Assembly: GCA_016184365.1 (NCBI GenBank)
Contig: JACPCW010000079.1
Location: 5,661-69,660, forward strand
Source: Candidatus Rokuibacteriota bacterium
Lineage (GTDB): Bacteria; Methylomirabilota; Methylomirabilia; Rokubacteriales; CSP1-6
DNA length: 64,000 bases
Direction: 5' to 3'
Position 1 is the first letter of the stretch, and every line of letters begins with the position of its first letter. The notes beneath the pieces were generated by a model. The model was not told the origin of the DNA. It saw only the letters and a program-made list of their open reading frames with translations, and searched no databases. This document shows, in pieces, positions 4,743 to 63,289 of this stretch. The position numbers and the translations under genes were made by a program.

Positions 4743-4814
4743 TCGAGGAGCGCCACGGGTTCCCCGGGCGCTCCGAGCGTTTGGGGGTCTGGGGGCCATT
4801 TCGGGGCCCCCAGC
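4743..4814 (+). repeat. Two-hairpin dispersed repeat, family A copy 1 (intergenic)
   Basis: TCGAGGAGCGCCACGGGTTCCCCGGGCGCTCCGAGCG..CTGGGGGCCATTTCGGGGCCCCCAG, near-identical to 8242-8313 on the minus strand. Confidence 0.92.
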
Positions 4815-4818
4815 CAAA

Positions 4819-5559
4819 TCAGATGAGCCGCGCGCGCAGCTTCGAGCTCACGAAGTCGACGATCATCACCATCGCGACGGTGACGAGCAGCACGGTCGCC
4901 GCGGCGGAGTAGTCGATCATCCTGAGATACGTCTGGAGATAGAAGCCGATGCCGCCGGCGCCGACGAAGCCGAGCACCGTCGCCGCGCGGATGTTCGTCT
5001 CCAGGCGGTAGAGCACGTACGAGAGGAACAGCGGCAGCACCTGCGGCAGCACGCCGAATCTCAAGACCTGCAACCGCGTCGCGCCCGTCGCCGTGATCGC
5101 GTCCACCGGACCCGGGTCGATGCCTTCGATGGCTTCGGAATAGAGCTTCGCCAGCGACGTCGTCGTGTACGCCACGACGGCGAGCACGCCCGGGAACGGC
5201 CCGAGGCCGACCGCGGCGACGAAGACGAGCGCGTAGACGAGCGTGTCGACGCTGCGGAAGAGATTCAGCACGCCGCGCGCGGGATAGAACAGGGCGGGCG
5301 CGGCCACGTTGCGCGCAGAGACGAATCCGAGCGGCAGCGCGAGCACCGCGGCGACGGTCGTCCCGAGCAGCGCGATCTCCACGGTGCGAACCGCGGCGAC
5401 CGCGGCCGACGGCAGCACCGAGAAATCCGGCGGGAACATCCGGCGGAAGAACTCGAACATCCACGGCAGGCCGCGCGCGAGCGCGACGGGATCGGCGCTC
5501 GTGTCCCACACGAGCCAGGCGAGCACGACGACGGCGACGAACAGCGGCGCGCGCGTCAT
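4819..5559 (-). CDS. phnE: Phosphonate/phosphite ABC permease
   Basis: TVEIALLGT, LAKLYSEAIEGIDPGPVDAI, YRLETNIRAATVLGFVGAGGIG. Confidence 0.88.
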   Translation of the reverse strand: MTRAPLFVAVVVLAWLVWDTSADPVALARGLPWMFEFFRRMFPPDFSVLPSAAVAAVRTVEIALLGTTVAAVLALPLGFVSARNVAAPALFYPARGVLNLFRSVDTLVYALVFVAAVGLGPFPGVLAVVAYTTTSLAKLYSEAIEGIDPGPVDAITATGATRLQVLRFGVLPQVLPLFLSYVLYRLETNIRAATVLGFVGAGGIGFYLQTYLRMIDYSAAATVLLVTVAMVMIVDFVSSKLRARLI

Positions 5560-6302
5560 GCCGCCGATCCGTCGTCGTAGATCTCGCGCACGACCGCCGG
5601 CGTCACCGCGGACGGCGGGCCGTCGAAGCAGAGGCGCCCGGCGCGAAATCCGACGATGCGGTGCGCGTAGCGCAGCGCGACCTCGAGCTGATGCTGGCTG
5701 ACGACGATCGTCAGGCCGCGGTCGGCGTTGATGTCGCGCAGGATGTCCATGATGGTCGTCGTCAGCTGCGGATCGAGGCTCGCGGTCGGCTCGTCGGCGA
5801 GGATCACCGCCGGCGTCTGCGCCAGCGCCCGCGCGATCGCCACGCGCTGCTGCTCGCCGCCGGACAGCGTGTCGGCGCGGCGCCGGGCGAGATGTCCGAG
5901 GCCGACCGCGTCGAGACAGTCGAGCGCCACGACACGGTCCGAGCCTGCGAAGCGGCCGATGAGGCTCGGCAGCTGGGCGGCGTACCCGAGACGGCCGGCC
6001 AGGACGTTGTCGAGGACGGTGGCGCGCCGGACGAGGTTGAACTGCTGGAACACCATGCCGATGCGCCGGCGCACCGAGCGCAGGCGCGCGGGCCCGGCGC
6101 CGGTGACGTCCCGGCCGTCCACGCGGATCGTGCCGGCCGTCGGCTCGACGAGCCGGTTGATGGCGCGGAGGAACGTGGTCTTGCCGGCGCCGCTGCGTCC
6201 GAGGATGACGACGAATTCGCCGACCGTGATGGTGAGATCGACGCCGTCGAGCGCGACGGTGTCGGGCGGCCGGACGACGCGCAGTCCGGTGACTTCGATC
6301 AT
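5556..6302 (-). CDS. phnC: Phosphonate/phosphite ABC ATPase
   Basis: GRSGAGKT, LSGGEQQRVAIARAL, ILADEPTASLDP. ATGA overlap with phnE. Confidence 0.88.
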   Translation of the reverse strand: MIEVTGLRVVRPPDTVALDGVDLTITVGEFVVILGRSGAGKTTFLRAINRLVEPTAGTIRVDGRDVTGAGPARLRSVRRRIGMVFQQFNLVRRATVLDNVLAGRLGYAAQLPSLIGRFAGSDRVVALDCLDAVGLGHLARRRADTLSGGEQQRVAIARALAQTPAVILADEPTASLDPQLTTTIMDILRDINADRGLTIVVSQHQLEVALRYAHRIVGFRAGRLCFDGPPSAVTPAVVREIYDDGSAA

Positions 6303-6334
6303 CGGGGCACGGCGCTCGGCCGGGACGGTGGTGT

Positions 6335-7235: not shown

Positions 7236-8330
7236 TCACGCCGCGAGGACGTAATCCCGGCCCGGGCGATAGCCGCGGGCGTCGAGCGCCGCCGCGATGA
7301 TCTCTCGCGCGCCGTGGCTCCCGACGTAGGACACGACGAACCGGCGGCCGGGCTCGCCGAGGTCCGCCGGCGCGATGACCGGCGCACCCTCGATCTGCTG
7401 GCCGATCTTTGCCGGATCGATGTCGATCCAGGCGTCGATCGCGATGCCGCGCGCCGCGAGGTGCCGCGCATGGCGCCGGCTCACGCGTCCGGCGCCCCAC
7501 ACGGCGATGGTCGGGTGATGCGCGTTGTGCGTGCGAAGCCAGCGCGCAAGATACGTCGCCTTCACGCGCGCGAACGCGTCGGGATCGTAGCGCCCGTCGT
7601 GGCGCGACAGGCGCCCGGGCGTGTCGCGCCACACGAGCAGCGTGTCGGGAAGCTTCTCCATGCGCACGCCGGCCGCGAGCCACCGCAGCCAGAGCTCGTA
7701 GTCCTCGGGGAAGTCGCCCTGGGCGTATCCCCCGTGCCGGTCGACCACGTCGCGACGGAACATGACGGACGGATGGGCGAACGGGGATTCGATGAAGCTG
7801 GCGAGCCGGATGTCGTCGGCGCTCAGCAGGCCGTTCGTCCAGTCGACGTAGCGCGCGTACCCGCCGGCGGTGGCGCGATCACCGTCGAACGCCACGCGCG
7901 TCGCGACCAGACCCGTCTCGGGATGCGTCTCGAGGTGCGCGCGCTGCCGCGCGAGCCGCTCGGGCCGCGCGAGGTCATCGGCGTCCATTCGAGCGATGAG
8001 CGCGCCATGCGCCAGCCCGAGTCCCGTCCGGAGCGCGGGGACGAGGCCGCGCCGCGCCGTCGATCGCACGCGGATGCGCGCGTCGGCGGCGGCGAGCGCG
8101 GCGAGTCGTGCGGCCGAATCGTCCTCGGAACCGTCGTCGACGGCGATCAGCTCCCAGTCGCGCTCGGTCTGTTCCCGGATGCTCGCGACGGCGGCGTCGA
8201 GCGTCTGCGCGGCATCGCGCACGGGCATCACGATCGATATAGCTGGGGGCCCCGAAATGGCCCCCAGACCCCCCGCGCTCGGAGCGCCCCGGGGAACCCG
8301 TGGCGCTCCTCGAATTCCCGTTGTCTTCAG
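7236..8330 (-). CDS. GT2 glycosyltransferase. Start uncertain (CTG 8330 overlapping the upstream stop, or a later codon).
   Basis: ISIVMPVRD, VDDGSED, ARMDADD, EDYELWLR. The N-terminal extension is repeat A copy 2. Confidence 0.85.
   Translation of the reverse strand: MKTTGIRGAPRVPRGAPSAGGLGAISGPPAISIVMPVRDAAQTLDAAVASIREQTERDWELIAVDDGSEDDSAARLAALAAADARIRVRSTARRGLVPALRTGLGLAHGALIARMDADDLARPERLARQRAHLETHPETGLVATRVAFDGDRATAGGYARYVDWTNGLLSADDIRLASFIESPFAHPSVMFRRDVVDRHGGYAQGDFPEDYELWLRWLAAGVRMEKLPDTLLVWRDTPGRLSRHDGRYDPDAFARVKATYLARWLRTHNAHHPTIAVWGAGRVSRRHARHLAARGIAIDAWIDIDPAKIGQQIEGAPVIAPADLGEPGRRFVVSYVGSHGAREIIAAALDARGYRPGRDYVLAA
8242..8313 (-). repeat. Family A copy 2, in frame at the GT2 N-terminus
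   Basis: Reverse complement matches copy 1 and reads IRGAPRVPRGAPSAGGLGAISGPP. Confidence 0.92.
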
Positions 8331-8656
8331 CCCTTCGCCTCGAAGACCTGCTGCGCCACGCGACCGGCCGTCATCGCCGCCGGCCATCCGGCATAGAACG
8401 CGAGATGCGTGATCACCTCGCCGATCTCGTCGCGCTTCAGACCGTTCGCGAGCCCGCGCTCGAGATGTCCCTTGAGCTGCTCGGACCGGCCGAGCGCGAT
8501 CAGCGTGGCGACGGTGACGAGGCTGCGATCGCGCTTCGACAGCCCGGGCCGCTCCCAGACGTCGGCGTAGAGGATCTTTTCCGACAGCTCGATCAGCTTC
8601 GGCGCGACCTGGCGAACGACGTCGCGCGCGGTGGTGGCGGCGGGCGGTGTGCTCAT
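8327..8656 (-). CDS. Carboxymuconolactone decarboxylase (CMD/AhpD) family protein
   Basis: VWERPGLSKRDRSLVTV, EVITHLAFYAGWP. AAGGAGG RBS and TGcTACGCT extended -10 upstream. Confidence 0.9.
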   Translation of the reverse strand: MSTPPAATTARDVVRQVAPKLIELSEKILYADVWERPGLSKRDRSLVTVATLIALGRSEQLKGHLERGLANGLKRDEIGEVITHLAFYAGWPAAMTAGRVAQQVFEAKG

Positions 8657-21983: not shown

Positions 21984-22001
21984 CCGTGGCGCTCCTCGAA
22001 T
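21984..22001 (-). repeat. Family A partial copy (5' arm only)
   Basis: CCGTGGCGCTCCTCGAAT is identical to 8298-8315. Confidence 0.6.
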
Positions 22002-23945: not shown

Positions 23946-24989
23946 ATGAGACGCCACATCGTTGCTGCCTGCGCGCTGCTCACCGCCGTCGTCGTCATCG
24001 CCGGTCCGTCGCCGGTGCCCGCCCAGAAGGAGCCGCTGGTCGTCAGCGTGTGGGGCGGGAACTGGAAGGACACCGTCGAGAAGATCGTCGGCAAGGCCTA
24101 CACCGCGAAGACCGGCACGCCCGTCGAGTTCGAGGTCGGCGGCACGATCGACCGGCTCGCGAAGGCGCGCGTCGCCAAGGGCGCGCCGCTCGTCGACATC
24201 AACTTCACCACGACGCACGTCGGGCGGCTCTACATCTCCGACGGCCTCTACCAGAAGCTCGACATGGCGAAGCTGCCGAACGCGAAGGACCTCGCGAAGG
24301 AAGCGCTGCGCAGCGACTTCCACCTCGGCACGTGGGCGTACGTGTACACGATCGCCTACCGGCCCGATCAGGTGCCGTTCGAGATCACGAAGTGGTCGGA
24401 TCTGTGGGATCCGCGCCTGAAGGGCAAGGTCGGCCTGCCGGACTTCGATCCGTCGCACATCATCACGATCGCCGCGCTGCTCGACGGCGGCGACGAGATC
24501 AGCTGGCAGAAGGGCTCGGAGCGTCTGAAGAAGCTCAAGCCGAACGTCGCGGCGTTCTTCTCCACCGACGCGCGCAGCCAGGATCTGATGAAGACGGGTG
24601 AGGCGCCGGTCCAGGTGATGCTCTCGATCAACGCGTTCCACCTGATGGACCAGGGTCTGAACGTCAAGGTGATCACGCCGCGCGACAAGCCCGGCATCGT
24701 CGGCATCGACACCGTCGCGATCATGGCGGGCACCAAGAAGGCGGACGCGGCGCACCAGTTCGTCGATCTCGTGCTGTCGAAGGAGATCCAGGACCAGCTC
24801 GTCGCGACGTTCAAGGCGGGACCGACGAACATGAAGACGGCGGTGCCCGCGAAGCTGCGCGGACAGCCCGGCGTGTTCACGACGCCGGCGGAATGGAAGG
24901 AGCGCGGCTACATCATGAACGACGAGGCGCGCGCGAAGACGCTGGCGGCCTGGAAGGACTGGTTCAACGCGAACCTCGTTGCCAAGTAG
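23946..24989 (+). CDS. ABC substrate-binding protein (PotD/PotF-like)
   Basis: Signal peptide. LVVSVWGG, WSDLWDP.LKGKV. GAGGAG RBS. Confidence 0.85.
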   Translation: MRRHIVAACALLTAVVVIAGPSPVPAQKEPLVVSVWGGNWKDTVEKIVGKAYTAKTGTPVEFEVGGTIDRLAKARVAKGAPLVDINFTTTHVGRLYISDGLYQKLDMAKLPNAKDLAKEALRSDFHLGTWAYVYTIAYRPDQVPFEITKWSDLWDPRLKGKVGLPDFDPSHIITIAALLDGGDEISWQKGSERLKKLKPNVAAFFSTDARSQDLMKTGEAPVQVMLSINAFHLMDQGLNVKVITPRDKPGIVGIDTVAIMAGTKKADAAHQFVDLVLSKEIQDQLVATFKAGPTNMKTAVPAKLRGQPGVFTTPAEWKERGYIMNDEARAKTLAAWKDWFNANLVAK

Positions 24990-26988: not shown

Positions 26989-28721
26989 AGCGCGCGACGA
27001 AACGCGCGGTGAGATCGAGGCGCGCCACGGCGGCGCCGGGGCGCGTCCGAGCGCGGGGGGGTATGGGGGGCCATGTCGGGGCCCCCCATGTAATGATCGG
27101 GGCCCCCCATGTGATCACGGTCGAAGTCGTGCGCAACGCGCTCTATGCGATCGCCGAGGAGATGAGCGTCATCGTGATGCGCTCGGCGCGGTCGCCGCTC
27201 CTGAAGGAAGCGGGCGATCTGTCGTCGGCGCTGACCGACGCGGAAGGCCGGCTGATCGCTCAGGGCCGCGACATCCCGATCCACATGGGCGTGATGGGCT
27301 TCACGGTGAAGGAGTTCTTGAAGCGCGTCCCCGCGTCGACGCTTCGCGAGGGCGACGTGTGGTTTCTGAACGTGCCGGAGATCGGCGGCAACCATTTGCC
27401 CGACGTGAAGGCGCTGCGCCCGGTCTTCGCCGGCGGCAAGCTGCGCGCGTTCGCCGTGAACCTCGCGCACTGGGCCGACGTCGGCGGCGCGGTGCCGGGC
27501 AGCTACGTGCCGTACGCGACGGAGTGCTACCAGGAAGGGCTGCGGATCGCGCCGATCCGGCTCTTCTCCGCGGCCGGTCCCGATCGCGAGAAGCTCGAGT
27601 TCGTGCTGTCGAACGTCCGCGGCCGCGAGGAGCGTGAAGGCGACATCTTCGCGCAGTACGCGGCCAACGACGTCGCGGCGCGCCGCTTCGCCGAGCTCTT
27701 TGCCGAACACGGCCCCGACGTCGTCGGCCGCTGCTTCGAGCGGCTGCACCAGGAAAGCGAAGCCGGGATGCGCGCCGCGATCCGCGCGCTGCCCGACGGC
27801 ACGTGGGAAGGCGAGGACTGGCTCGACGACGACGGCGTCGACGACCGGCGCATCCGCATCAAGGCGCGCGTCACCGTGGCCGGCGACGAGGCGACGTTCG
27901 ACTTCACCGGCACGGATCCGCAGGCCCGCGGTCCCGTGAACACGACGTATTTCATCGCGTGCTCCGCCGTGTACTACGCGATGAAGGCGCTCGTCGCGCC
28001 GGACGTGCCGCCGAACGACGGATGCTATCGGCCGCTGCGGGTGATCGTTCCGCCCCGCACGGTGCTCAGCGCCGATCCCGACCGGCCGGTCGTCGGCGGG
28101 AACCATGAAACGTCGCAGCGCGTCGTCGACGCGATCTTCAAGGCCTTCGCGCCCGTGCTGGCGGAGCGCGTCGTCGCCGGCGGGCCGACGACCTCGGGCG
28201 TGATGATCTTCGGCGCCCGTGGCGGCGACGGTCGCTGGCGGATCCTCTACGAGACGCACGGCGGCGGCGAAGGCGCCGGCGCCGGTCGCGATGGCGCGTC
28301 CGCGACGCGTGTCCACATGTCGAACGTGATGAACACGCCGGTCGAGGTGATCGAAGGCGAATATCCGATTGCCGTCGAGGAGCAGACGCTGCGCGCCGGC
28401 TCCGGCGGCGAGGGCCGCCATCGCGGCGGCCTCGGCGTGCGGCGCGCGTACCGGATTCTCGGCGACAGCGTCACGCTGACGACGATGCTGGAGCGCCGGC
28501 TCGTCCCGCCGTGGGGCGTGCACGGTGGCAAGGACGCGCTGCCGTTTCGTCTGACCCTCAATCCGGGTCCGGGCGAGCGCGTGATCCGCGGGAAGGAAAC
28601 GCTCACGCTGAAGGCGGGCGACCTGGTCCTCGTCGAGACGTGCGGCGGCGGCGGCTACGGCGTCCCGGCGGAGCGATCGCGGGAAGCCATCGAGCACGAC
28701 CGGCGGGAAGGCTACGTATGA
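26985..28721 (+). CDS. Hydantoinase B / 5-oxoprolinase subunit with repeat-derived N-terminus (alternative ATGs at 27063 and 27093)
   Basis: EVVRNAL..IAEEM, GGNHLPD, HWADVGG..PGS, NTPVE, GGGGYG. GTGA overlap. Confidence 0.9.
   Translation: MKRATKRAVRSRRATAAPGRVRARGGMGGHVGAPHVMIGAPHVITVEVVRNALYAIAEEMSVIVMRSARSPLLKEAGDLSSALTDAEGRLIAQGRDIPIHMGVMGFTVKEFLKRVPASTLREGDVWFLNVPEIGGNHLPDVKALRPVFAGGKLRAFAVNLAHWADVGGAVPGSYVPYATECYQEGLRIAPIRLFSAAGPDREKLEFVLSNVRGREEREGDIFAQYAANDVAARRFAELFAEHGPDVVGRCFERLHQESEAGMRAAIRALPDGTWEGEDWLDDDGVDDRRIRIKARVTVAGDEATFDFTGTDPQARGPVNTTYFIACSAVYYAMKALVAPDVPPNDGCYRPLRVIVPPRTVLSADPDRPVVGGNHETSQRVVDAIFKAFAPVLAERVVAGGPTTSGVMIFGARGGDGRWRILYETHGGGEGAGAGRDGASATRVHMSNVMNTPVEVIEGEYPIAVEEQTLRAGSGGEGRHRGGLGVRRAYRILGDSVTLTTMLERRLVPPWGVHGGKDALPFRLTLNPGPGERVIRGKETLTLKAGDLVLVETCGGGGYGVPAERSREAIEHDRREGYV
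27015..27112 (+). repeat. Family A copy 3 plus a 16-nt duplication of its 3' arm
   Basis: TCGGGGCCCCCCATGT occurs at 27076-27091 and 27097-27112. Encodes GGMGGHVGAPHVMIGAPHV. Confidence 0.88.
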
Positions 28722-30502: not shown

Positions 30503-31369
30503 ATGCAGCCGTTCGAGTACGCCGCGCCGGCGTCGGTCGACGAGGCGCTCGCCCTGCTCGCGCGCCACGGTGCCGACGCGAAGGTCCTGGCCGGCGGACA
30601 GAGCCTCGTCCCGCTCCTGAACTACCGGCTCGCGCGCCCGCGCTTCGTCGTCGACGTCAACGATCTGCCGCTCGACGAGATCCGTGTCGACGCCGGCCGC
30701 GTGCGCCTCGGCGCGCTCGTCCGGCACTCGACGCTCGCCGCATCGGCCGTCGTCGCGCGCGAGTGTCCGCTCCTGACCGAGGCCGCCGCCCTCATCGGCA
30801 ACGTGCGGGTGCGGTCGCTCGGCACGGTCGGCGGCAGCCTCGCGCACGCGGATCCGGCCGCCGAGCTGCCGCTCGCGATGGTCGCGCTCGACGCGCGATT
30901 CGAACTTCGCAGCGCGCGCGGCTCGCGCACCGTCGAGGTGCGCGACTTCTTCTCCGGGTACCTCACGACGGTGCTCCGGCCCGACGAGCTGCTGACGTCG
31001 GTCGACGCGCCGCCGACGCGGGGCGCGGGCACGGCGGTCGAAGAGTTTTCACGCCGGCCGGGGGACTTCGCGCTCGTCGCCGTCGCCGCGATCGTCACGA
31101 TCGATCGCCAGGGCCGTGTCGAGAACGCCCGCGTCGCGATCGGTGGCATCGACGGCGTGCCGCGCCGGATTCCGGCCGTCGAGAACGCGCTGCGAGGCGA
31201 GCCGCCGGCCACCGATCGGATCGCGCGCGCGGCGGAGCTCGCGCGCGCGGAGGTCACACCGCAGTCCGATGCCTTGGCGAGCGGCGAGTACCGCACGCTG
31301 CTCGCCGGCGTGCTGACGAAGCGCGCGCTCGCGCGCGCGGTGTCGCGCGCGATGGCGGTCCCCGCATGA
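30503..31369 (+). CDS. Molybdenum hydroxylase FAD subunit (CoxM/XdhB-like)
   Basis: LAGGQSL.P.LNYRLARP, GTVGGSLAHADPAAELP, GDFAL. Confidence 0.9.
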   Translation: MQPFEYAAPASVDEALALLARHGADAKVLAGGQSLVPLLNYRLARPRFVVDVNDLPLDEIRVDAGRVRLGALVRHSTLAASAVVARECPLLTEAAALIGNVRVRSLGTVGGSLAHADPAAELPLAMVALDARFELRSARGSRTVEVRDFFSGYLTTVLRPDELLTSVDAPPTRGAGTAVEEFSRRPGDFALVAVAAIVTIDRQGRVENARVAIGGIDGVPRRIPAVENALRGEPPATDRIARAAELARAEVTPQSDALASGEYRTLLAGVLTKRALARAVSRAMAVPA

Positions 31370-31830: not shown

Positions 31831-34172
31831 TCGAGGGGGGCCACGGCTTCGCCGGGGACCCCCGAGCGGTGGGGGGTGTGGGGGGCCATATCGGGGCCCC
31901 TCACTCGGTGGTCGGCCAGCGCGTCGTGCGCCACGACGCGCGCGACAAGGTTCAGGCGGCCACCGCGTACGCCGGCGACTGGGCGATGCCCGGCATGCTG
32001 CACGGCGTGGTCGTGCGCTCGCCGTATCCCTCCGCCCGGATCCGCGGCATCGACACGACGAAAGCGGCCGCGATGCGGGGCGTCGCGTGCGTGCTCACCG
32101 CCCGCGACGTGCCGCGCAACACGCTGATGACCGACGTGCCCGGACAGACGACGACCGTCGGTCCGCTGCGCGCGAAGCTGCACGTGCTCGCCGAGGATCG
32201 CGTGCGGCATCAGGGCGAGCCGGTGGCGCTCGTCGCGGCCGAGACGCTCGAGCAGGCGCGCGACGCCGCGGACGCGGTCGAGGTCGACTACGAGCCGCGG
32301 CCCGGCGTGTTCGACGCCGAGCAAGCGCTCGCCCCCGATGCGCCGAAGGTGCACGACGAGGGCAACCTGCTCGCGCACTGGCGCATCGCGCGCGGCGACG
32401 TCGACGCCGCGTTCGCCGGCGCCGCGGTCGTCGTCGAGGGCGAATACCGGACGCAGTTCGTCGATTCCGCCTATCTCGAGCCCGAGACCGGTGTGGCGTG
32501 GATCGATTCCGACGGCGTCATCACGATCCGGCTCTCGACGCAGGTCATCGAGCACTTCCGCGATGTCGCGGACGTGCTCGACGTGCCGCAGAACCGCGTC
32601 CGCGTGATCGGCGCGTATCTCGGCGGCGGCTTCGGGGGCAAGGAAGACGTGACCGTCGAGGTGTATCTCGGACTGCTCGCGGTGAAGACCGGGCGCCCCG
32701 TGAAGATGGTGTGGACACGGCAGGAGTCGCTGCTCGCGCGCGCGAAGCGGCATCCGTATCGCCTGCGCTATCGCACCGCGGCCGCGAAGACCGGCGAGAT
32801 CCTCGCGCAGGACGTCGAGCTGCTGGGCGACTCGGGCGCGTACGCCTACCTGTCGGCGCTCGTGCTGCTGTATTCCACGGTCACCGCGTGCGGTCCGTAT
32901 CGCGTGCCCGCCGCGCGCGTGCAGGCGCGCGTGGCGTACACGAACAACCCGCCGACGTCGGCGATGCGCGGGTTCGGCGCGATGCAGACCGTCTTCGGCT
33001 ACGAGTCGCAGATGGACCGCGTCGCGCGCGCGCTCGGCCTGCCGCCGGCCGACGTCCGCAAGGCGAACGCGCTCCGCCGCGGCGACACGCTGCCGGTCGG
33101 ACAGGTGATCGAGACGCACTGCGCGCTGCCCGAGCTGATCGATCGCGCGTGGGCAGGGCTCGGCGCGCCGACGCCGCCGCGCGCGCCGCACGCGAAGGTC
33201 GGGCGTGGTCTCGCGTGCAATCTCCAGCCGTACGGACGGATCGTCTGGCTCCACGACTGGGCGAGCGCGTGGGTCGGATTCGAGATGGACGGCAGCCTCG
33301 TGGTGCGCTGCGGATGTCCCGACGTCGGCGGCGGTCAGGCGAGCTCGCTCTGTCAGATCGCGGCCGAGGTGCTCGGCGTGCCGATCGATCGCATCAGCGT
33401 GCACATCGCCGACAGCGCGCTGACGCCGCTGGCCGGCACGACGACGGCGAGCCGCCAGCTCTACATGTCGGGCAACGCGACGCTCAAGGCGTCGGGCGAG
33501 CTGCGCGAGCAGATTCTCGGCGTCGCTGCGAAGCTGCTCGAGACGTCGGTTGCCGACGTCGATCTCGCCGGCGGCGAGGTCCGCGCCGCCGACGGCCGGA
33601 CGATGCCGCTCCGGCAAGTCCTGGCCGCGTGCGCGCGCATGGGCGTGCCGCGTAGCCATCTCGCCGTATACCACGCCCCGGCTGGGGAACCCGTGGATCT
33701 GACGAAAGGCTCGGGCAAGATCTTTCCGGACTACACGTTCGGCTGCCACGCGGTGGAGCTCGAGGTCGACACCGAGACGGGACGCGTGCGGCTGCTCAAA
33801 CACGTCGCCGCGCACGACGTCGGACGCGCGATCAATCCGATGTCGGTCGAAGGCCAGATCGAAGGCGGCGCGGTGCAGGGCCTCGGCTACGCGATGATGG
33901 AAGAGGTCGTGCTCGAGGACGGCATCAACCTGACGACGTCGTTTGCGTCGTACCTGATCCCGACGACGGTCGACGTGCCCGACGTCGAGGCGATCGTGCT
34001 CGAATCCGGCGAAGGGCTGGGGCCGTTCGGCGCGCGCGGCATCGGCGAGCCGCCGATCGGCCCGCCGGCGGCGGCCGTCGCCAACGCGATCGAGGACGCG
34101 ACGGGCGCGCGCGTGACGCGCCTGCCAATGACGCCCGAACGCGTCGCGCGCGCCTTGCGATTGTTGACGTGA
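31827..34172 (+). CDS. Molybdenum hydroxylase Mo-binding subunit (xanthine dehydrogenase family) with repeat-derived N-terminus
   Basis: GGGFGGK, AMRGFG, GQIEGG..QGLG, GIGEPP. ATGA overlap. Confidence 0.9.
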   Translation: MIEGGHGFAGDPRAVGGVGGHIGAPHSVVGQRVVRHDARDKVQAATAYAGDWAMPGMLHGVVVRSPYPSARIRGIDTTKAAAMRGVACVLTARDVPRNTLMTDVPGQTTTVGPLRAKLHVLAEDRVRHQGEPVALVAAETLEQARDAADAVEVDYEPRPGVFDAEQALAPDAPKVHDEGNLLAHWRIARGDVDAAFAGAAVVVEGEYRTQFVDSAYLEPETGVAWIDSDGVITIRLSTQVIEHFRDVADVLDVPQNRVRVIGAYLGGGFGGKEDVTVEVYLGLLAVKTGRPVKMVWTRQESLLARAKRHPYRLRYRTAAAKTGEILAQDVELLGDSGAYAYLSALVLLYSTVTACGPYRVPAARVQARVAYTNNPPTSAMRGFGAMQTVFGYESQMDRVARALGLPPADVRKANALRRGDTLPVGQVIETHCALPELIDRAWAGLGAPTPPRAPHAKVGRGLACNLQPYGRIVWLHDWASAWVGFEMDGSLVVRCGCPDVGGGQASSLCQIAAEVLGVPIDRISVHIADSALTPLAGTTTASRQLYMSGNATLKASGELREQILGVAAKLLETSVADVDLAGGEVRAADGRTMPLRQVLAACARMGVPRSHLAVYHAPAGEPVDLTKGSGKIFPDYTFGCHAVELEVDTETGRVRLLKHVAAHDVGRAINPMSVEGQIEGGAVQGLGYAMMEEVVLEDGINLTTSFASYLIPTTVDVPDVEAIVLESGEGLGPFGARGIGEPPIGPPAAAVANAIEDATGARVTRLPMTPERVARALRLLT
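31831..31904 (+). repeat. Family A copy 4, in frame at the Mo-subunit N-terminus
   Basis: Encodes MIEGGHGFAGDPRAVGGVGGHIGAPH. Compensatory stem changes. Confidence 0.88.
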
Positions 34173-56169: not shown

Positions 56170-58191
56170 ATGTTCGTCGTCGGGATCGACGTGGGCGGCA
56201 CGTTCACCGACGTGACCGCGGTCGACGAGGCCACCGGCCGGGTCACGGTCACGAAGGTGCCGTCGCGCCCGCGTGACGAAGCGGGCGCGGTGCTCGCCGG
56301 CCTCGCGGCGCTGGCGATTCCCGACGGCGGTGTCCGCCGGCTCGTCCACGGCACCACCGTCGGGACCAACGCCGTGCTCGAGCGCCGCGGCGCGCGCGTC
56401 GCGCTGCTGACGACCGAGGGCTTTCGCGATCTGCTCGAGATCGGCCGCACGAAGCGCAACATTCCCGCGCTGTTCATCCCGACCTTCGTGCGCCCGAAGC
56501 CGGTGGTGCCGCGTGCGCTGCGGTTCGAGGTGGCCGAGCGCCTGCTGCACGACGGCTCGGTGCTCCGGCCGCTCGACGCCGGCGACGTCGCGCGCGCCAT
56601 CGGCGAGCTCGAGGCGACCGGCGCGGAAGCGGTCGCCGTGTGTCTGCTCCACGCATGGGCGAACCCGGCGCACGAGCGCATGCTCGGCGAGGCGCTCAAG
56701 GCGCGCCTGCCCCACGTGCCGGTCTCGCTCTCGTCGGACGTCGTGCCCGAGTACCGGGAGTTCGAGCGGTTCTCCACGACGGTCCTGAACGCCTACCTCC
56801 AGCCGCTGCTGGACCGGTACCTCGCGGCGCTCGAGGAACGGCTGCACGCCGCGGGGGTCCTTCCCGGGGTGTTGACGATCGGCTCCGCGGGCGGCGTGCT
56901 CTCGTCCGAGACGGCGCGGCGCCTGCCGATCCGCACGATCCTGTCCGGCCCGGCCGGCGGCGTGAGCCAGGCGTGTTTCATCGCCGAGCGCGCCGGCCTC
57001 CGCGACTTCATCACCTACGACATGGGCGGGACGTCGACGGACGTCTGCCTGATCCGCGACCTCGATCCCGTGACGACGACCGACAATCTCATCGGCGGCT
57101 TTCCCGTGAAGACGCCGCAGATCGATCTCCGCACGGTCGGCGCCGGCGGCGGCAGCGTCGCCTGGCTCGACGTCGACGGCAGTCTGCAGGTCGGCCCGCG
57201 CAGCGCCGGCGCGCGGCCCGGCCCGGCGGCGTACGGTCTGGGCGGCACCGAGCCGACGGTCACGGACGCGAACGTCGTGCTCGGCCGGATCGGCGTGACG
57301 CGCACGCTCGGCGGCGCCATCACGATCGATCCCGGGGCGGCGACGCGCGCCGTCGAGGGCCTCGCGCAGCGTGTCGCGCTCGACGTCCACGCGACCGCCG
57401 ACGGCATCATCCGCATCGCCGTCGCGCGCATGGTGTCGTCGATCCGCGAGATCTCGATCCAGCGCGGTCACGACCCGCGCGATTTCACGCTCATCGCGTA
57501 CGGCGGCGCCGGTCCGATGCACGCGGTCGCGATCGCCGCGGAGCTCGGGCTGCCGCGCGTGCTCGTGCCGCGGCATCCCGGGAACTTCTCGGCGCTCGGA
57601 CTGCTCGTGTCCGATCTCAAGCACGACGACGTCCGCACGCACCTCGGCCCGCTCCGCGACCGGATCGGCGGCGTCGGCGCGCTCTTCGCGGAGATGGAGC
57701 GCGTCGCCGCCGGCCGCCTCGAGGCCGATGGCTTCGGCGCGACGGCCAGACGCATCGAGCGCTCGCTCGATCTTCGCTACGCCGGGCAGGCGTTCGAGCT
57801 CGCCGTGCCCGTCGACACGCGGCTCGAGCTCGCGGTCATCGAGCGCGAGTTCCATCGGCGCCACGAGGCGGCCTACGGCCACGCGAACCTCGCCGGCCAG
57901 ATCGAGCTGGTGAACGCGCGCATCGCGGCCTACGGCGTCGTCACGAAGCCGGAGCCTCCGCGGTATCGCAGCGACGGCGTGCGTCTGGACGACGCGCGCG
58001 TCGAGACGCGTCGCCTCTGGTTCGACGGTGAGCCCGTCGACTGTCCGGTCTGGGACCGTGACCGGCTGCCGGAAGGCGGCCGCTTCGCGGGGCCGGCGCT
58101 GATCGAAGAGTTCGGCTCGACGACCGTGGTACCGCCCGGCTGGCGCGGGGCGATCGACGAGCCCGGCAATCTGCTGCTGGAGCGCGCGTGA
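56170..58191 (+). CDS. Hydantoinase A / 5-oxoprolinase ATP-binding subunit (second copy)
   Basis: GIDVGGTFTD, HGTTVGTN, SGPAGG, DMGGTSTD. Leaderless-type promoter. Confidence 0.92.
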   Translation: MFVVGIDVGGTFTDVTAVDEATGRVTVTKVPSRPRDEAGAVLAGLAALAIPDGGVRRLVHGTTVGTNAVLERRGARVALLTTEGFRDLLEIGRTKRNIPALFIPTFVRPKPVVPRALRFEVAERLLHDGSVLRPLDAGDVARAIGELEATGAEAVAVCLLHAWANPAHERMLGEALKARLPHVPVSLSSDVVPEYREFERFSTTVLNAYLQPLLDRYLAALEERLHAAGVLPGVLTIGSAGGVLSSETARRLPIRTILSGPAGGVSQACFIAERAGLRDFITYDMGGTSTDVCLIRDLDPVTTTDNLIGGFPVKTPQIDLRTVGAGGGSVAWLDVDGSLQVGPRSAGARPGPAAYGLGGTEPTVTDANVVLGRIGVTRTLGGAITIDPGAATRAVEGLAQRVALDVHATADGIIRIAVARMVSSIREISIQRGHDPRDFTLIAYGGAGPMHAVAIAAELGLPRVLVPRHPGNFSALGLLVSDLKHDDVRTHLGPLRDRIGGVGALFAEMERVAAGRLEADGFGATARRIERSLDLRYAGQAFELAVPVDTRLELAVIEREFHRRHEAAYGHANLAGQIELVNARIAAYGVVTKPEPPRYRSDGVRLDDARVETRRLWFDGEPVDCPVWDRDRLPEGGRFAGPALIEEFGSTTVVPPGWRGAIDEPGNLLLERA

Positions 58192-60203
58192 CCATGGGAG
58201 GGCGAGTCGATCCCATCACGCTCGAAGTCCTGCGCGAGGCCTTTTCGTCGATCGTGCGCGAGATGCGGGTGACGCTGCTCCGCACCGCGTATTCGTCGAT
58301 CCTCTACGAGGGCGAGGACTTCTCGTGCGTGCTCATGGACGGTACGGCGCAGATCGTCGCCATGTCCAAGGGGCAGGACCATCCGCTCCACATCGTGCCG
58401 ATCAGCTGGTCCATGGGCGCGGTGCGCGAGCGCTTCGGCGACGACATCCATCCGGGCGACATCTTCCTGCACAACGACCCCTACACGGGCGGCACGCACC
58501 TGAACGACGTCGCGATGATCTACCCGCTCTTCGTCGACGGCGCGCTCTTCATGTTCCCCGTCGTGCGCGCGCACTGGGGCGACGTCGGCGGCATGAGCCC
58601 GGGCAGCCTGTCGGGACGCGCGACGGAGATCTACCAGGAAGGCGTCCGCATCCCGCCGATCCGGATCGTCGACCGCGGACGACCGAACCAGGCGGCGCTC
58701 GACATCATCTTCGGCAACGTGCGCGGGCCGGAAGACCGCGAGGGCGACTTCCGCGCCATGATCGGGACGTGCCGCAAGGCGGCGGACCGCGTGGAGGAGC
58801 TCGTCGCGCGCTACGGCGCCGGGACGCTGCGGGCGGCGATGCACGAGCTCTTCGACCGCGCCGAGGCGCGGATGCGCCGGCGCATCCGCGAGCTCCCGCC
58901 CGGCGAGTACCGGTACGAGGCCTACCTGGAGGGCGGGCGCGACCGGTTCGAGCCCCTGACGATCCGCGCGCGCGTCGTCATCGAGGGCGACGCGATCACC
59001 GTCGACCTGACGGGCACCTCGCCCCAGACCGCCGGGCCGACGAACGTCGGCCCGGCGATGGCGCCGACCGGCGCGTTCACGATCGTGAAGTCGTTCCTCG
59101 ATCCCGGGGGCGACATCAACTCCGGGGCGTTCCGGCCTCTGACGGTCATCGCGCCGGAGGGCACGATCGTGAACGCGCGGCGGCCGGCGCCGTGCGGCGG
59201 CATGGTCGAGGTGAAGTCCGGCGTCGAGTCCGCGGTGATGGGCGCGCTGGCGCAGGCGATGGCGGGCCAGGTGACGGGCGATTTGAAGGGTGGCGGCAAC
59301 CATTGTTACATCGGCAGCGCCTCCTTCATCTTCTACGAGTACCCGGCGGGGGGGACGGGCGGCTTCGACGGCGGCGACGGCTCGAACACGGTGCGCGCCT
59401 TCACCGAGAGCGACATGACGACGCTCCAGCCCGTCGAAGCCGTCGAGCAGAAGTACCCGCTGCGCGTGGAGCGGACGGCGCTGCGCGTCGATTCGGGCGG
59501 GCCGGGACGCTGGCGCGGCGGCGTCGGCCTCACGCGCGAGGTCCGGCTGCTCGTCGATCGCGCGCAGCTCTCCGTCCTCGCCGAGCGCAGTCTGCTGCCG
59601 CCGTATGGCGTGTGCGGGGCCGCGGCCGGCGCGCCCAACCGCTTCTGGGTGCGGCGCGACGGCGCGGCCGTCGAACCGTCGCCGGTGCCCGGCAAGGTGA
59701 GCGGGTTTCCGCTGCTGGCCGGTGACGTCGTCGTGATGGAGTCGTCCGGCGGCGGCGGCTACGGCGACCCGCTCGAGCGCGATGTCGCGCTCGTCGCCGC
59801 CGATCTCGCGGAAGGCGTCGTCACCGCGCGCGGCGCCGCGGACGTCTACGGCGTCGTGTCGACCGGCGGCGTCATCGATCCCGCCGCGACCGTGCAGCAC
59901 CGACGCGAGCTTCGCGCCGCGCGGGTGGCCGTGACGATCGCCGCCGGCGACGGGTTCGACGAGACGCGCGTGCGCGAGGTGCGGATCGATCAGGCGACGG
60001 CGCGTCGTCTCGTCGTGTCGGTCGGCGACGTCGTCGAGCTGGTCAATCCGACGGGCGCGCCGCTCCGACTGTGGGTCGTGGCCATCGACGATGGACCGCC
60101 CGCGCGCGCCGTCGTATCGCACGAGGCCGCGGCCATCCTTCGCGCCGGCGACGGAACGCGCGCGGAGATCCGCCGCGTCTATGCGGCGAGCGCTGTCGGC
60201 TAG
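58188..60203 (+). CDS. Hydantoinase B / 5-oxoprolinase subunit (second copy) with C-terminal extension
   Basis: DPITLEV, NDPY.GGTHLND, HWGDVGG..PGS, GGGGYGDPLER. Confidence 0.9.
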   Translation: MTMGGRVDPITLEVLREAFSSIVREMRVTLLRTAYSSILYEGEDFSCVLMDGTAQIVAMSKGQDHPLHIVPISWSMGAVRERFGDDIHPGDIFLHNDPYTGGTHLNDVAMIYPLFVDGALFMFPVVRAHWGDVGGMSPGSLSGRATEIYQEGVRIPPIRIVDRGRPNQAALDIIFGNVRGPEDREGDFRAMIGTCRKAADRVEELVARYGAGTLRAAMHELFDRAEARMRRRIRELPPGEYRYEAYLEGGRDRFEPLTIRARVVIEGDAITVDLTGTSPQTAGPTNVGPAMAPTGAFTIVKSFLDPGGDINSGAFRPLTVIAPEGTIVNARRPAPCGGMVEVKSGVESAVMGALAQAMAGQVTGDLKGGGNHCYIGSASFIFYEYPAGGTGGFDGGDGSNTVRAFTESDMTTLQPVEAVEQKYPLRVERTALRVDSGGPGRWRGGVGLTREVRLLVDRAQLSVLAERSLLPPYGVCGAAAGAPNRFWVRRDGAAVEPSPVPGKVSGFPLLAGDVVVMESSGGGGYGDPLERDVALVAADLAEGVVTARGAADVYGVVSTGGVIDPAATVQHRRELRAARVAVTIAAGDGFDETRVREVRIDQATARRLVVSVGDVVELVNPTGAPLRLWVVAIDDGPPARAVVSHEAAAILRAGDGTRAEIRRVYAASAVG

Positions 60204-60212
60204 GCTCCCGGA

Positions 60213-61382: not shown

Positions 61383-61464
61383 GGAGACCTCCTTGGGTGG
61401 CCCCATCGTACCGCCGCTCGGACCCCTGTGAGAAGATTCAGCGCGCGATCAGGAGGGTGCCTGC

Positions 61465-62331
61465 ATGGAACGACGGCGACTCGGACGGACGGGACATCGA
61501 TCCACGGTCGTGACGTTCGGCGCCGTCGCGGTCGGACGGCTGGAGCAGGATGCCGCGGATCGCGCGATCCAGCTCGTGCTCGACCGCGGCGTGAATCACT
61601 TCGACGTCGCGCCGCGGTACGCGGACGCCGAGCTGCGGCTCCAGCCGTGGATGCCGCGGATCCGCGACCGGGTGTTTCTCGGCGGCAAGACGGCCGAGCG
61701 CACGCGCGAGGCGGCGTGGGAACAGCTGAACCGCTCGCTCGAGCGGCTCGGCACGGACCATCTCGATCTCTACCAGCTCCACTCGGTCGGCAAGATCGCG
61801 GACCTCGACGCGTGCACCGCGCGGGGCGGCGCCCTCGAGGCGCTCGTGCAGGCGCGCGAGCAGGGCCTCGTGCGGTGGCTCGGGGTGACCGGGCACACGC
61901 ACGCCGCGCCGGGCACGCACTTCGAGGCGCTCCGCCGCTTCGATTTCGACACGGTCATGTTCCCGCTGAACTTCGTGCTGTGGGCCGATCCGGCGTACCG
62001 GCGCGACGCGACGGCGCTGCTCGACGAATGCGCGCGGCGCGACGTCGGCGTGCACATCATCAAGACGGTTGCGAAGGATTCATGGGGCGAGCGCGCGAAG
62101 ACGCATGCGACCTGGTACGAGCCGTTCACCGACCAGGGCGTCATCGACCGCGCCGTCGCCTTCGTGCTGTCGAAGCCGGTCACGACGCTCACGACCGTCG
62201 GCGACGTCGGCGTGCTGCCGAAGGTGCTCGATGCCGCCGAGCGGTTCCGGCCGCTGACCCCCGAGGCGGAAGCTGCGCTCGTCCGCGAGGCCGGGCAGTA
62301 TCACTCGCCATTCGTCGGCTCGTGGGCCTAG
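61465..62331 (+). CDS. Aldo/keto reductase
   Basis: RRLGRTG, FDVAPRY, SLERL.TDHLDLYQLH. Confidence 0.9.
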   Translation: MERRRLGRTGHRSTVVTFGAVAVGRLEQDAADRAIQLVLDRGVNHFDVAPRYADAELRLQPWMPRIRDRVFLGGKTAERTREAAWEQLNRSLERLGTDHLDLYQLHSVGKIADLDACTARGGALEALVQAREQGLVRWLGVTGHTHAAPGTHFEALRRFDFDTVMFPLNFVLWADPAYRRDATALLDECARRDVGVHIIKTVAKDSWGERAKTHATWYEPFTDQGVIDRAVAFVLSKPVTTLTTVGDVGVLPKVLDAAERFRPLTPEAEAALVREAGQYHSPFVGSWA

Positions 62332-62333
62332 CG

Positions 62334-62747
62334 ATGGATCTCGCGGACGCAACGGTCCAGCGCTATCTCGCCACGAAGGACGTGGCGCTGCTCGCGACCG
62401 TCAACCCCGACGGATCGCCGCTCGCGATGCCGATGTGGTTCCTGCACAATCCCGCGACCCTGACGATGATCAGCGTCGCCGGCCTCGCCAAGGTGCGGAA
62501 CCTGACACGCGATCCGCGCGTCTGCGTCGTCGCCGAGAGCGGCGGACGCGGTGACATCCGCGGGGTCGCGGTGCAGGGCCGCGCCGAGTTTCTCGATGAC
62601 TCGCCCGAGCGCCGCGCGCTCGTCGAGCGCTTCCTCGACAAGTACGACCCGCACCTCGCGAAGCTCTGGAACGGCCGCGTGATGCCGCCGACCCGGGTGA
62701 TGTTCCGCATCGTCCCGTCGCACGTCCGGTCCTGGGGCCTCGGGTGA
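62334..62747 (+). CDS. Pyridoxamine-5'-phosphate oxidase-like (PPOX, possibly F420-binding) protein
   Basis: LATVNPDGSP...PMWF, KVRNL.RDPRV, GRAE. Confidence 0.82.
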   Translation: MDLADATVQRYLATKDVALLATVNPDGSPLAMPMWFLHNPATLTMISVAGLAKVRNLTRDPRVCVVAESGGRGDIRGVAVQGRAEFLDDSPERRALVERFLDKYDPHLAKLWNGRVMPPTRVMFRIVPSHVRSWGLG

Positions 62748-63289
62748 TCGAGGAGCGTCACGGGTTCCCCGGGACGCTCCGAGCGTTGGGGGGTGTGGGG
62801 GGCCATGTCGGGGCCCCCCACGTGATTATCGGAGCCGGGATCCTCGGCGCCGCGACGGCGTATCACCTCGCGCGTGCCGGCCGCCGCGTCGTCGTGCTCG
62901 AAGCCGCCGTGCCCGCGAGCGGAGCGAGCGCGAACTCGTTCGCGTGGGTCAACGCGGTTCACAAGGAGCCCGAGCCGTACCACCGGCTGAACGCCGCCGG
63001 TGTCGCCGAGTACGCGACGGTGATGAAGGAGCTCGGCGAGGACTCACGCTCGCCATTCCCGCCGGCGCGGAGATCGCGCTGTTCGAGCCCGACGGCTGGG
63101 TCGACGCGCCGCGCCTGATCGCGACGTTCCTCGCGCGCGCGCAGGCGCTCGGCGCCGAGGTGCGCACCGAGACGGCGGTGCGCGGGTTGAGGCGCGACGG
63201 CGCTGCTCGGCCGGCTGATCGCCGCCGAGATGACCGGCGCGCCCGCGGACGAGCTGCTCGCGCCGTTCCGCCCGTCCCGCTTCCGCTGA
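62744..63289 (+). pseudogene. FAD-dependent oxidoreductase (DAO family) with two internal deletions/frameshifts
   Basis: IIGAGILGAATAYHL..GASANSFAWVN, then DGWVDAPRL in a second frame, then LLAPFRPSRFR* after a further shift. Only ~550 nt in total. Confidence 0.8.
62748..62821 (+). repeat. Family A copy 5, in frame at the DAO-family N-terminus
   Basis: Encodes MIEERHGFPGTLRALGGVGGHVGAPH. GTGA start/stop overlap directly before it. Confidence 0.92.

Follow-up and report, generated by a model that had tools for sequence, protein, structure and literature searches.

A REP- and RPE-like family of two-hairpin repeats, probably mobile, in one lineage of Candidatus Rokubacteria

A structured GC-rich repeat found throughout a Rokubacteria genome is best explained as a group of small mobile DNA elements that are non-autonomous and specific to a single lineage, at family level, within Candidatus Rokubacteria of the phylum Methylomirabilota. 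We give this explanation a probability of roughly 0.6. The repeat is best described as a new variety of REP- or RPE-like selfish mobile element, and no known mover was found for it. Searches with nhmmer recover 493 copies at E<1e-4 in this 5.6-Mb genome, and the 518 matches at E<0.01 are divided about equally between the two strands (257 plus, 261 minus). These numbers are far above chance, and metagenome contig depth, which climbs about 100-fold in the two bins containing copies, points the same way. The copy numbers also agree with the density of about one copy per 11 kb estimated in an initial annotation of the 64-kb stretch analysed here, which we call the window.

The five full copies and one partial copy reported there are all present at those loci, and a further partial duplicate accompanies copy 3. 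Gene boundaries given below come from our own codon-usage caller and not from a standard annotation.

4743..4811, plus strand: copy 1, core from TCGAGG to the C-run, 66.2 bits
8245..8313, minus strand: copy 2, sense, 69.2 bits
21984..21999, minus strand: truncated 5' fragment of 16 nt, TCGAGG and the 5' arm of hairpin 1 only
27015..27087, plus strand: copy 3, sense, in the gap between hydantoinase A (24979-26988) and hydantoinase B, 63.6 bits
27097..27112, plus strand: partial duplicate, 3' arm of hairpin 2 and tail, read directly from the sequence
31831..31902, plus strand: copy 4, sense, 57.3 bits
62748..62819, plus strand: copy 5, sense, 74.4 bits

The distances from the preceding same-strand stop to the T of TCGAGG in copies 1 to 5 are 21, 13, 26, 0 and 0 nt. 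Copy 1 occupies a convergent gap between gene 3270-4721(+), which supplies the upstream stop, and gene 4819-5559(-), which ends 7 nt downstream. Copy 2 is flanked by the minus-strand genes 8327-8656, on its upstream side, and 7236-8231. The partial duplicate that follows copy 3 lies immediately 5' of the likely GTG start of hydantoinase B. Copies 4 and 5 begin with the first base behind the TGA of overlapping stops. For copy 4 this is the ATGA of the small dehydrogenase subunit gene 31366-31830, and the copy stands 5' of the conserved region where the large molybdopterin subunit starts (called as 31821-34172). For copy 5 it is the GTGA of gene 62322-62747, and the copy is followed after 2 nt by a GTG and a flavoprotein N-terminus with GxGxxG. 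The 16-nt fragment is not detected by nhmmer at E<0.01, and our caller gives no minus-strand gene ending at the TAG that had been assigned to it.

Each core is about 70-75 nt long and opens with an invariant TCGA(GG) left end. This is followed by hairpin 1, a stem of 12-13 bp whose sequence is free and whose pairing is kept. After it come the linker CCGAGCG, which is invariant, then a G-run and finally another GC hairpin, hairpin 2. Inside a genus hairpin 2 hardly varies, and between genera it co-evolves. The stability of both hairpins is very high, and the RNA fold of the consensus has a predicted energy of -48.8 kcal/mol. All stem variants previously quoted for the window were found, including the G.A mismatch and G.T wobble of copy 4. 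The arms of hairpin 2 do vary in length together, and genome-wide columns 53 and 75 hold G-C in 188 copies and a gap/A in 178.

Covariation in these stems is very strong. Predicted base pairs head the mutual-information ranking; at pair 20-24, for example, 249 copies have CG and 170 have GC. The 5' arm occurs as 199 distinct haplotypes, with double-sided changes in 65 combinations, and 11.31 of 12 pairs form; exchanging arms between copies at random lowers this to 9.29 +/- 0.05. In the comparison across genomes, pairing holds in 95.8% of cells. Shuffles give 80.9%, and 0 of 500 shuffles reach the observed value. Partners that are slid out of register pair in just 40-53%, and double-sided changes occur at 15 of 22 pairs.

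The family is present in 68 of 86 sampled genomes of one GTDB family of Rokubacteria and in 1 of 9 genomes of its sister family. None of the 45 sampled genomes from nine other families of the phylum carries it. Covariation and this family-restricted occurrence together back the earlier proposal of a lineage-specific structured repeat whose folding is under selection. A comparison with Rfam matched no known family, and the window yields 0 matches at the gathering threshold. The Rfam family BjrC68 matches one copy at 18.6 bits (threshold 39) and is absent from six loci with other copies. A literature search found no paper on repeats in Rokubacteria.

Most copies are extragenic, with 432 of the 475 placed copies outside ORF calls. 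Of the 493 copies, co-directional gaps account for 198 in sense and 127 in antisense, convergent gaps for 93 and divergent gaps for 14; a further 43 fall within ORF calls and 18 at the edges of contigs. Corrected for the DNA available, divergent (promoter) gaps hold about ten-fold fewer copies per kb (14 in 135 kb, versus 93 in 87 kb of convergent and 325 in 327 kb of co-directional gaps). The distance from stop to element peaks at 12-24 nt, and ATGA/GTGA stops host 91 of 149 sense copies versus 35% of all stops. The copies had been described as always following a stop codon in sense orientation, and this rule fails genome-wide on the antisense, divergent and ORF-internal copies. The strict orientation in the window is a small-sample effect. 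Finding five of five is unremarkable (about 0.13), because the genome-wide rate of sense or convergent placement is about 67%.

Orientation also tracks local GC skew, in 59% of copies (n=439) and in 79% where |skew|>0.02 (n=34). The genome shows only weak skew (mean |skew| 0.01), and in a related MAG copies on the two strands intermingle along a 3.3-Mb contig, where a clean replichore flip is absent. The skew association explains the sense excess in co-directional gaps only in part (2x2 table).

Some features of this distribution would suit an RNA element that serves the host, in which selection on each mRNA would keep the hairpins because they stabilise its 3' end, act as terminators or modulate translation. 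Copies gather at the 3' ends of genes, avoid divergent promoter gaps, are 61% sense in co-directional gaps (198:127), and place very stable hairpins at a characteristic distance from the stop. We nevertheless consider this explanation unlikely, because the strand on which folding is constrained can be read from the mismatches. G.T wobbles outnumber A.C mismatches by 133 to 31 (p=3e-16), and the ratio is 46:11 in sense copies and 45:11 in antisense copies (Fisher p=1). A G.T wobble in an antisense copy becomes an A.C mismatch in the mRNA. Since the ratios are equal, the folding constraint acts on the element's own strand and not on the mRNA. Only the top strand of the element is constrained to fold, whatever the direction in which the surrounding genes are transcribed.

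Other observations also weigh against selection at the mRNA level. In addition to the 127 antisense copies, at least 18 copies are in-frame coding sequence, and the relatives examined do not share the positions of the copies. Intrinsic termination is not indicated either, since the T-run is absent 3' of hairpin 2, where the C-run is followed by A, mixed bases and an ATCA-like motif. A role in mRNA stability or translation, implied in the initial annotation, is therefore not upheld as the reason for keeping the hairpins. Single copies may have been co-opted by the host. Outside the stems there is no C>T excess. Cells common to nearest copies account for 59 of 136 G.T wobbles and 7 of 33 A.C mismatches (p=0.03). 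Private mismatches still number 77 G.T and 26 A.C, and part of the pairing may be kept in place.

Sites occupied by the repeat are empty in the relatives examined, including genomes of the same genus. Copies 3 and 4 are lacking at aligned junctions of three relatives (G001, G015 and G023). The copy 3 junction is repeat-free in G023, with a spacer of 55 nt, and in G015, where the genes meet in an ATGA overlap. At the copy 4 site, both genes overlap (GTGGCTGA) and the repeat is absent in G001, which is of the same genus, and in G015. These relatives bear copies elsewhere within the same loci. In metagenome contigs neither an empty-site allele nor an excision junction was seen. Recent transposition is unsupported, because identical dispersed copies are lacking (the 330 cores include 329 distinct ones) and the nearest non-local neighbour is a median of 5 edits away.

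No target site duplication (TSD) is present at any offset for k=2-5. The longest string common to both flanks is 3.93 nt versus 3.77 nt in shuffled sequence, and arrays cause this slight excess. Terminal inverted repeats (TIRs) are likewise missing, as the 5' TCGAGG and the 3' C-run with its weak tail are not complementary in consensus or logos. Neighbours less than 60 nt apart are always head-to-tail (58 direct, 0 inverted). A tandem pair in the CopA gene duplicates 16 nt of upstream flank, and arrays grow by duplication of the element together with its flank.

The absence of an identifiable mobilising enzyme, first noted for the window, extends to the whole genome and to its relatives. Both Y1_Tnp (PF01797) and TnpB give 0 matches in this genome, which is 90% complete. 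A RAYT/Y1 transposase flanked by copies was sought and was not found. An ordinary REP/REPIN family moved by such an enzyme would be short, palindromic, mainly extragenic and present in hundreds of copies, as is the case here. It would also fit the top-strand-only folding, the lack of TSDs and the tandem clusters with flanking sequence, which resemble the REPIN clusters described in PMC3116915. This origin is nonetheless very unlikely. Y1 genes are present in only 14 of 61 genomes of the family and are unrelated to copy load. They are missing from the many-copy genomes G023 (100% complete), G024 (99%), G015 (97%) and G010 (98%), and present in the copy-poor genomes G014 (0 copies), G006 (1) and G018 (3). 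Inverted doublets are also lacking among the 58 close pairs.

IS91-type Y2 genes occur in 31 of 61 family genomes, show no relation to repeat load and have no flanking copies; the best match at the IS91-like genes is 14 bits. These genes bear on the idea that the repeat is a MITE, the remnant of a DDE-type or other insertion sequence that moves it in trans. Size, copy number and the partial copies (22 with the 5' part only, 26 with the 3' part only) are compatible with such a derivation, and an IS110-like fragment has one degenerate copy about 170 nt away on its upstream side. However, other IS91-like and IS110-like loci lack flanking copies, the ends of the element are not inverted repeats of each other, TSDs are absent, and no pair of 5' and 3' parts brackets an ORF. 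All 13 genes bracketed by inverted copies are housekeeping genes. A MITE origin therefore has very little probability.

Spread through the element's own RNA, by a retro-type or transcript-templated route, would make the top-strand constraint a constraint on that RNA. The tolerance of G.U-type pairs is indeed strand-specific and independent of context, neither TSDs nor TIRs occur, and no DNA transposase was found. Against this route, 5'-truncated copies are not in excess (26 3'-only versus 22 5'-only) and there is no A-rich or other priming tail. We regard it as quite improbable.

Some copies have entered proteins. At least 18 of the 43 ORF-internal copies are in-frame insertions with coding signal on both sides, a status assessed from this signal, from the Pfam architectures of 10 ORFs and from comparison of CopA with its PDB homologue 3j09. 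The proteins affected include CopA, PutA and CoxL. CopA is interrupted by copies exactly where 3j09 runs contiguous; 4 of 4 CopA orthologues lack its three copies, and 2 of 2 PutA orthologues lack the one in PutA. These insertions are multiples of 3 nt and sit in permissive loops and linkers, and the element-coded peptide also appears in six proteins of other Rokubacteria MAGs. Sites that tolerate the element are thus found just past stops, at or just inside ATGA/GTGA operon junctions, and in protein loops and linkers.

Mobile DNA, our preferred explanation, suggests a mechanism. The element would spread via a single-stranded top-strand intermediate, most likely DNA. Its mover would be an enzyme specific for both structure and sequence that recognises the hairpins together with TCGA and CCGAGCG, as in IS200/IS605-REP movement, and that belongs neither to the Y1 (RAYT) nor to the IS91-type Y2 transposases. 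Uncoupling of genes, new N-termini and insertions of about 26-aa peptides would be by-products and not the element's raison d'etre. A more specific version, which we hold tentatively and at somewhat under even odds, is that this is a second, independent RPE-like system. In it, a non-RAYT, non-IS91 enzyme (or the element's own RNA) recognises the folded top strand and leaves no duplication, and across the family ~26-residue segments are inserted into essential enzymes and overlapped operon junctions are re-wired. If true, the targets include a P-type ATPase, PutA, molybdopterin dehydrogenases and complex I subunits, and a variable but paired hairpin 1 beside a fixed hairpin 2 would be a recognition mode undescribed for bacterial repeats.

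Several known systems share parts of this behaviour. The MIRU of mycobacteria are repeats wedged at overlapping stop and start codons between operon genes, much as are the sense copies at ATGA/GTGA stops. Unlike in MIRU, the overlapped start is in the frame of the downstream gene only as often as chance (32 of 94), and element lengths are not multiples of three. IS200/IS605 elements, with IS608 as the example, share top-strand-only hairpins, the lack of TIRs and TSDs, an invariant left-boundary tetranucleotide and an orientation bias towards the G-rich (lagging-strand template) strand. They differ in that no Y1 TnpA or TnpB is present in the Rokubacteria genome, the two hairpins of the repeat are dissimilar and the sequence of hairpin 1 is unconserved. 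Part of this comparison follows the discussion in PMC3116915.

REP/REPIN sequences and their RAYTs in Proteobacteria are described in PMC3337134 and PMC3116915 as short GC-rich palindromic repeats in hundreds of copies. As these sources portray them, they resemble the present family in being mostly behind genes, lineage-wide and persistent, in forming tandem clusters that include flanks and in having a presumed single-strand hairpin substrate. The Rokubacteria repeat differs in its lack of inverted doublets and RAYT association, its two dissimilar hairpins per unit and its many copies within coding sequence. Rickettsia palindromic elements (RPE) lie in-frame in unrelated metabolic genes and add a peptide segment, according to the account in PMC10969869, which cites Ogata et al. 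2000. The likeness drawn here to these palindromic in-frame insertions is one of behaviour. RPE are about 150 bp long and reside in an obligate intracellular alphaproteobacterium, whereas the Rokubacteria repeat is about 75 bp, mostly intergenic and carried by free-living groundwater and soil hosts.

The repeat makes up about 7% of Rokubacteria intergenic DNA and breaks short-read assemblies. Rokubacteria are abundant in soil and groundwater and are, to our knowledge, known from metagenomes alone. There are consequences for binning, annotation and gene calling, with starts and fusions near copies easily mis-called. With about 440 diversified copies whose stems are compensated and whose wobbles are strand-specific, the family is a clean natural case in which selection on the structure of DNA or of propagation can be told apart from selection on mRNA structure. 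'Selfish DNA in proteins', inserted in-frame and until now familiar mainly from Rickettsia, is extended to a free-living phylum. The family also raises the question of which enzyme mobilises a REP-like element where RAYT is missing.

The dispersed repeat is an element of about 75 bases that runs from TCGAGG through a first hairpin, a CCGAGCG linker and a second hairpin ending in a run of C residues. Direct reading of the six window sites named in the initial annotation found the content described there, and the stem variants quoted for them are exact in the sequence.

Copies of the element in the window
4743-4811, plus strand: copy 1
8245-8313, minus strand: copy 2
27015-27087, plus strand: copy 3
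31831-31902, plus strand: copy 4
62748-62819, plus strand: copy 5
21984-21999, minus strand: partial copy, a 16-nt 5' fragment

A repeat search of the window groups the four plus-strand copies as family D2. The five full copies share 85% mean column identity in a MAFFT alignment, and RNAalifold draws two hairpins for them. The source assembly comprises 5.58 Mb in 146 contigs (70.1% G+C, 90% completeness), with the window on contig C28. An HMM of the five copies has 497 matches in this genome. After one iteration there are 518 matches at E<0.01, divided between 257 plus and 261 minus, and 493 at E<1e-4. Conservation sets in sharply at TCGAGG and ends at the hairpin-2 C-run.

Two departures from this plan were observed. 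A subfamily of about nine sense copies in the source genome, the 17-nt distance class, has about 21 nt of additional conserved sequence at the 5' end, opening with an ATGA stop/start overlap, and its core begins CCGAGG rather than TCGAGG. The hairpin-1 half is also found by itself, repeated head to tail every 46 nt or so (source genome G000:C84:38326-38463, C37:58254-58348 and C110:17570-17665), which indicates that the element is modular.

In hairpin 1, base pairing is conserved where sequence is not. In an alignment of 439 full copies made from sequence only, without fitting to a model, the column pairs that rank highest in mutual information coincide with the predicted base pairs, and most paired-column changes are swaps between G-C and C-G. 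Within the genome, the 5' arm of hairpin 1 occurs in 199 different versions, and double-sided changes occur in 65 combinations. Even so, 11.31 of its 12 pairs form; exchanging arms between copies lowers this to 9.29 +/- 0.05. Pairwise identity between copies is 74% in the hairpin-1 stem columns versus 87% in the remaining element. Hairpin 2 is nearly invariant in the source genome except for joint changes in arm length. Across genomes, 95.8% of cells pair versus 80.9% in shuffles, in an alignment (35 copies, 26 loci, 26 genomes) whose fitting to the model favours structure; none of 500 shuffles reaches this value, and pairing with slid partners is only 40-53%. Double-sided changes occur there in 15 of 22 pairs, some of them in hairpin 2. 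By our own column counts and by structure-pair counts, the covariation that the initial annotation expected is present, with pairing above shuffles both within the genome and across genomes.

Wobble pairs reveal the strand on which folding is selected, because the complement of a G.T pair is an A.C mismatch. Read on the top strand, which starts with TCGAGG, the stems contain 133 G.T wobbles versus 31 A.C (p=3e-16). Outside the stems there is no excess of C>T, and G>A is commoner, so the G.T excess reflects selection rather than mutation bias. Sense copies have a G.T:A.C ratio of 46:11 and antisense copies one of 45:11. Folding is thus selected on the top strand of the element, regardless of which way the host gene is transcribed. 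This independence speaks against hairpins kept in place for a function in mRNA, the role implied by the initial annotation. The evidence favours a filter that belongs to the element itself, either an intermediate in single-stranded form or a protein that binds one strand specifically. Among mismatch cells, those common to the five nearest copies make up 59 of 136 for G.T and 7 of 33 for A.C (p=0.03). Private mismatches still lean toward G.T by 77 to 26, and part of the constraint may for this reason act in place.

The initial annotation also held that the element always lies in sense orientation behind a stop codon. In the window, by our own gene calls, the distances from the same-strand stop codon to the element are 21, 13, 26, 0 and 0 nt for the full copies; these calls include no gene that ends ahead of the partial copy. 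Genome-wide placement was scored against genes predicted by our own caller, which uses codon-usage log-odds learned from long high-GC3 ORFs (5,268 genes, 89.7% coding).

Placement of 493 copies in the source genome
Co-directional gap, sense: 198
Co-directional gap, antisense: 127
Convergent gap: 93
Divergent gap: 14
Inside ORF calls: 43
Contig edge: 18

Because of these counts the rule fails beyond the window. The pattern that does hold is a close association of copies with gene ends and operon junctions. Copy density per kb of gap is about one tenth as high in divergent gaps as in co-directional or convergent ones. Sense copies show stop-to-element distances that peak at 18, 15, 12 and 0 nt, and for 91 of 149 the stop lies within ATGA or GTGA, compared with 35% of all stops. 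In the opposite orientation, the facing gene's stop is 2-8 nt from the C-run.

Translation through the element, in the manner of MIRU, was considered as a general rule and rejected. The overlapping start is in the frame of the downstream gene in only 32 of 94 cases. Starts overlapping the upstream stop are in the element's ATC-GAG frame in 51 of 94, and, counted by phase against the downstream gene, the hairpin-2 loops divide 70:42:51.

Some copies lie within genes. About 20 of the 43 ORF-internal copies have a strong same-frame coding signal on both sides; a stricter count, over the 40 copies whose 5' anchor could be located, finds a two-sided signal in 18. Pfam architectures around ORF-internal copies are single and well known.

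Proteins with internal copies (Pfam)
CopA-type P-type ATPase: three copies
PutA: copy in interdomain linker
FbiC: copy in interdomain linker
Hydantoinase A: copy inside
TPP enzyme: copy inside
CoxL-type subunit: copy inside
Two AsmA/DUF748 proteins: copies inside

CopA gives the clearest view of the inserted segment. Its alignment to PDB 3j09 falls into three blocks that are contiguous in the solved protein and are separated in the query by about 27 and 56 residues. All three copies are absent from four orthologues. At the double site, a sequence from the same genus is uninterrupted, and the insert spans (A)TCGAGG to the C-run plus AGA. In-frame insertions show that only about three further bases beyond the C-run belong to the element. 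Within the window, the hydantoinase A paralogues are free of the insert that a third paralogue carries. Six public proteins from other Rokubacteria MAGs contain an element-coded stretch: a biotin ligase, an NTP transferase, two DUF512 proteins, an acyltransferase and a solute-binding protein.

The reading frames of coding copies are not random. GGP(D/E)(M/L)AP is read in 10 of 11 antisense coding copies and GA(M/I)SGP in six of seven sense ones. The TCGA of the element takes the codon phase xTC|GAx in 12 of 18 copies, matching the 84% of all coding TCGA that take this phase. The same preference may also underlie the 3-nt periodicity seen downstream of ATGA/GTGA starts. The frame bias at hairpin 2 may reflect either a target preference or selection acting on the encoded peptide.

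Two further ORFs with copies fuse usually separate genes, as judged by Pfam. At G000:C89:37680-40571 (locus L153), NuoG-like and NuoH-like parts form one uninterrupted ORF of 963 aa via two tandem copies; a true fusion would explain this, as would loss of a stop codon or an assembly error within a G-run. At G000:C66:15837-17537 (locus L158), a sense copy links a hexapeptide acetyltransferase to a DegT-type aminotransferase in an ORF of 566 aa.

Relatives provide junctions that lack the copies of the window. The hydantoinase A/B junction that holds copy 3 is a 55-nt spacer in relative G023 and an ATGA overlap in relative G015. The junction of copy 4, between two dehydrogenase subunits, is a GTGGCTGA overlap in G001, of the same genus, and in G015. 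Model scans found no copy at these junction loci of relatives, nor at the G015 counterpart of the gene that lies upstream of copy 5. Elsewhere in these neighbourhoods, relatives do carry copies. For copies 1 and 2, synteny is lost in the five relatives compared. The window itself contains two paralogous hydantoinase/oxoprolinase A+B operons (24979-28721 and 56170-60203), about 70-75% identical in places, and the repeat lies between A and B only in the first.

Judging from sequence divergence, the copy population is old and diverse. Cores are distinct in 329 of 330 cases, and the median edit distance is 5 to the nearest non-local neighbour versus 14 for random pairs.

The element has no terminal inverted repeats. 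No target-site duplication was found by the longest common flank string or by fixed-offset k-mers (k=2-5). Close neighbours are direct in 58 cases and inverted in none, and form 48 arrays. These grow by tandem duplication, as shown by the CopA pair, in which 16 nt of the upstream flank is repeated. By local GC skew, the element tends to be oriented with the G-rich strand (59% overall, 79% at strong skew). The contig G041:C2 (3.3 Mb, from a related MAG) has mixed strands and no clean flip. By analogy, the traits of the element resemble single-strand, HUH-type transposition.

A RAYT/Y1 gene flanked by copies, which the initial annotation suggested looking for, is not present: Y1 (PF01797) is absent from the source genome. 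It occurs in 14 of 61 family genomes, with no relation to copy load. The IS91-type Y2 (PF04986) is found in 31 of 61, likewise unrelated to copy load, and a model scan of its loci in the source genome found none flanked by the element. One Y2 gene lies at G000:C57:30822-31319, and Y2 occurs in none of 14 control genomes. TnpB (PF07282) is absent from the source genome, which has one IS110-like fragment (PF01548) with one degenerate copy nearby. This N-terminal fragment, positions 1-82 of 155, is in locus L177 (G000:C82:13637-16885) with the degenerate copy about 170 nt upstream; possibly the transposase landed in or next to a copy. Thirteen genes bracketed by inverted copies were checked as mobilizer candidates and are housekeeping genes.

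Distribution was scored with covariance model R1 in genomes that are all MAGs, including the unpublished G011, G024 and G137; matches per genome range from 0 upward, and G009, G014, G057, G060 and G062 are among the family's genomes with none. In the sample of relatives, the element is in 22 of 24 genomes of the same GTDB family and four of 13 of the sister family. In the phylum sample, it is in 68 of 86 same-family genomes, one of nine sister-family genomes and none of 45 from nine other families. At least 102 stretches of public contigs carry the core, under record titles naming Candidatus Rokubacteria, Rokuibacteriota or Methylomirabilota MAGs.

DNA contigs of four groundwater metagenome runs, each from a different study, break at the repeats, and among the joints listed for these contigs none skips a copy, which counts neither for nor against excision. 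In both copy-holding bins (window 27006-27339 and 31682-32015) the summed depth of these contigs is raised about 100-fold, and contigs end at the same bins. The element family is very abundant in those groundwater communities, and it fragments assemblies.

A gathering-threshold search of the window returned no Rfam family, a comparison that the initial annotation suggested. A full-length sub-threshold match to BjrC68 (RF02353), a Bradyrhizobiaceae sRNA, at 62745-62831 on the minus strand was rejected as an identity. It scores 18.6 bits against a threshold of 39 for one copy only and is taken as chance; RF02353 is not matched on six loci with other copies. A limited literature search, on which 'not described' rests, found nothing relevant on repeats in Rokubacteria.

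Compared with REPIN/RAYT (PMC3337134, PMC3116915), the element has a similar way of life, including tandem clusters that take in flank (PMC3116915), but it differs in having neither an inverted doublet nor a RAYT. It shares in-frame insertion with RPE, whereas size, host and the share of intergenic copies differ (PMC10969869). We file it as an element of the REP/RPE kind that is a member of neither family.
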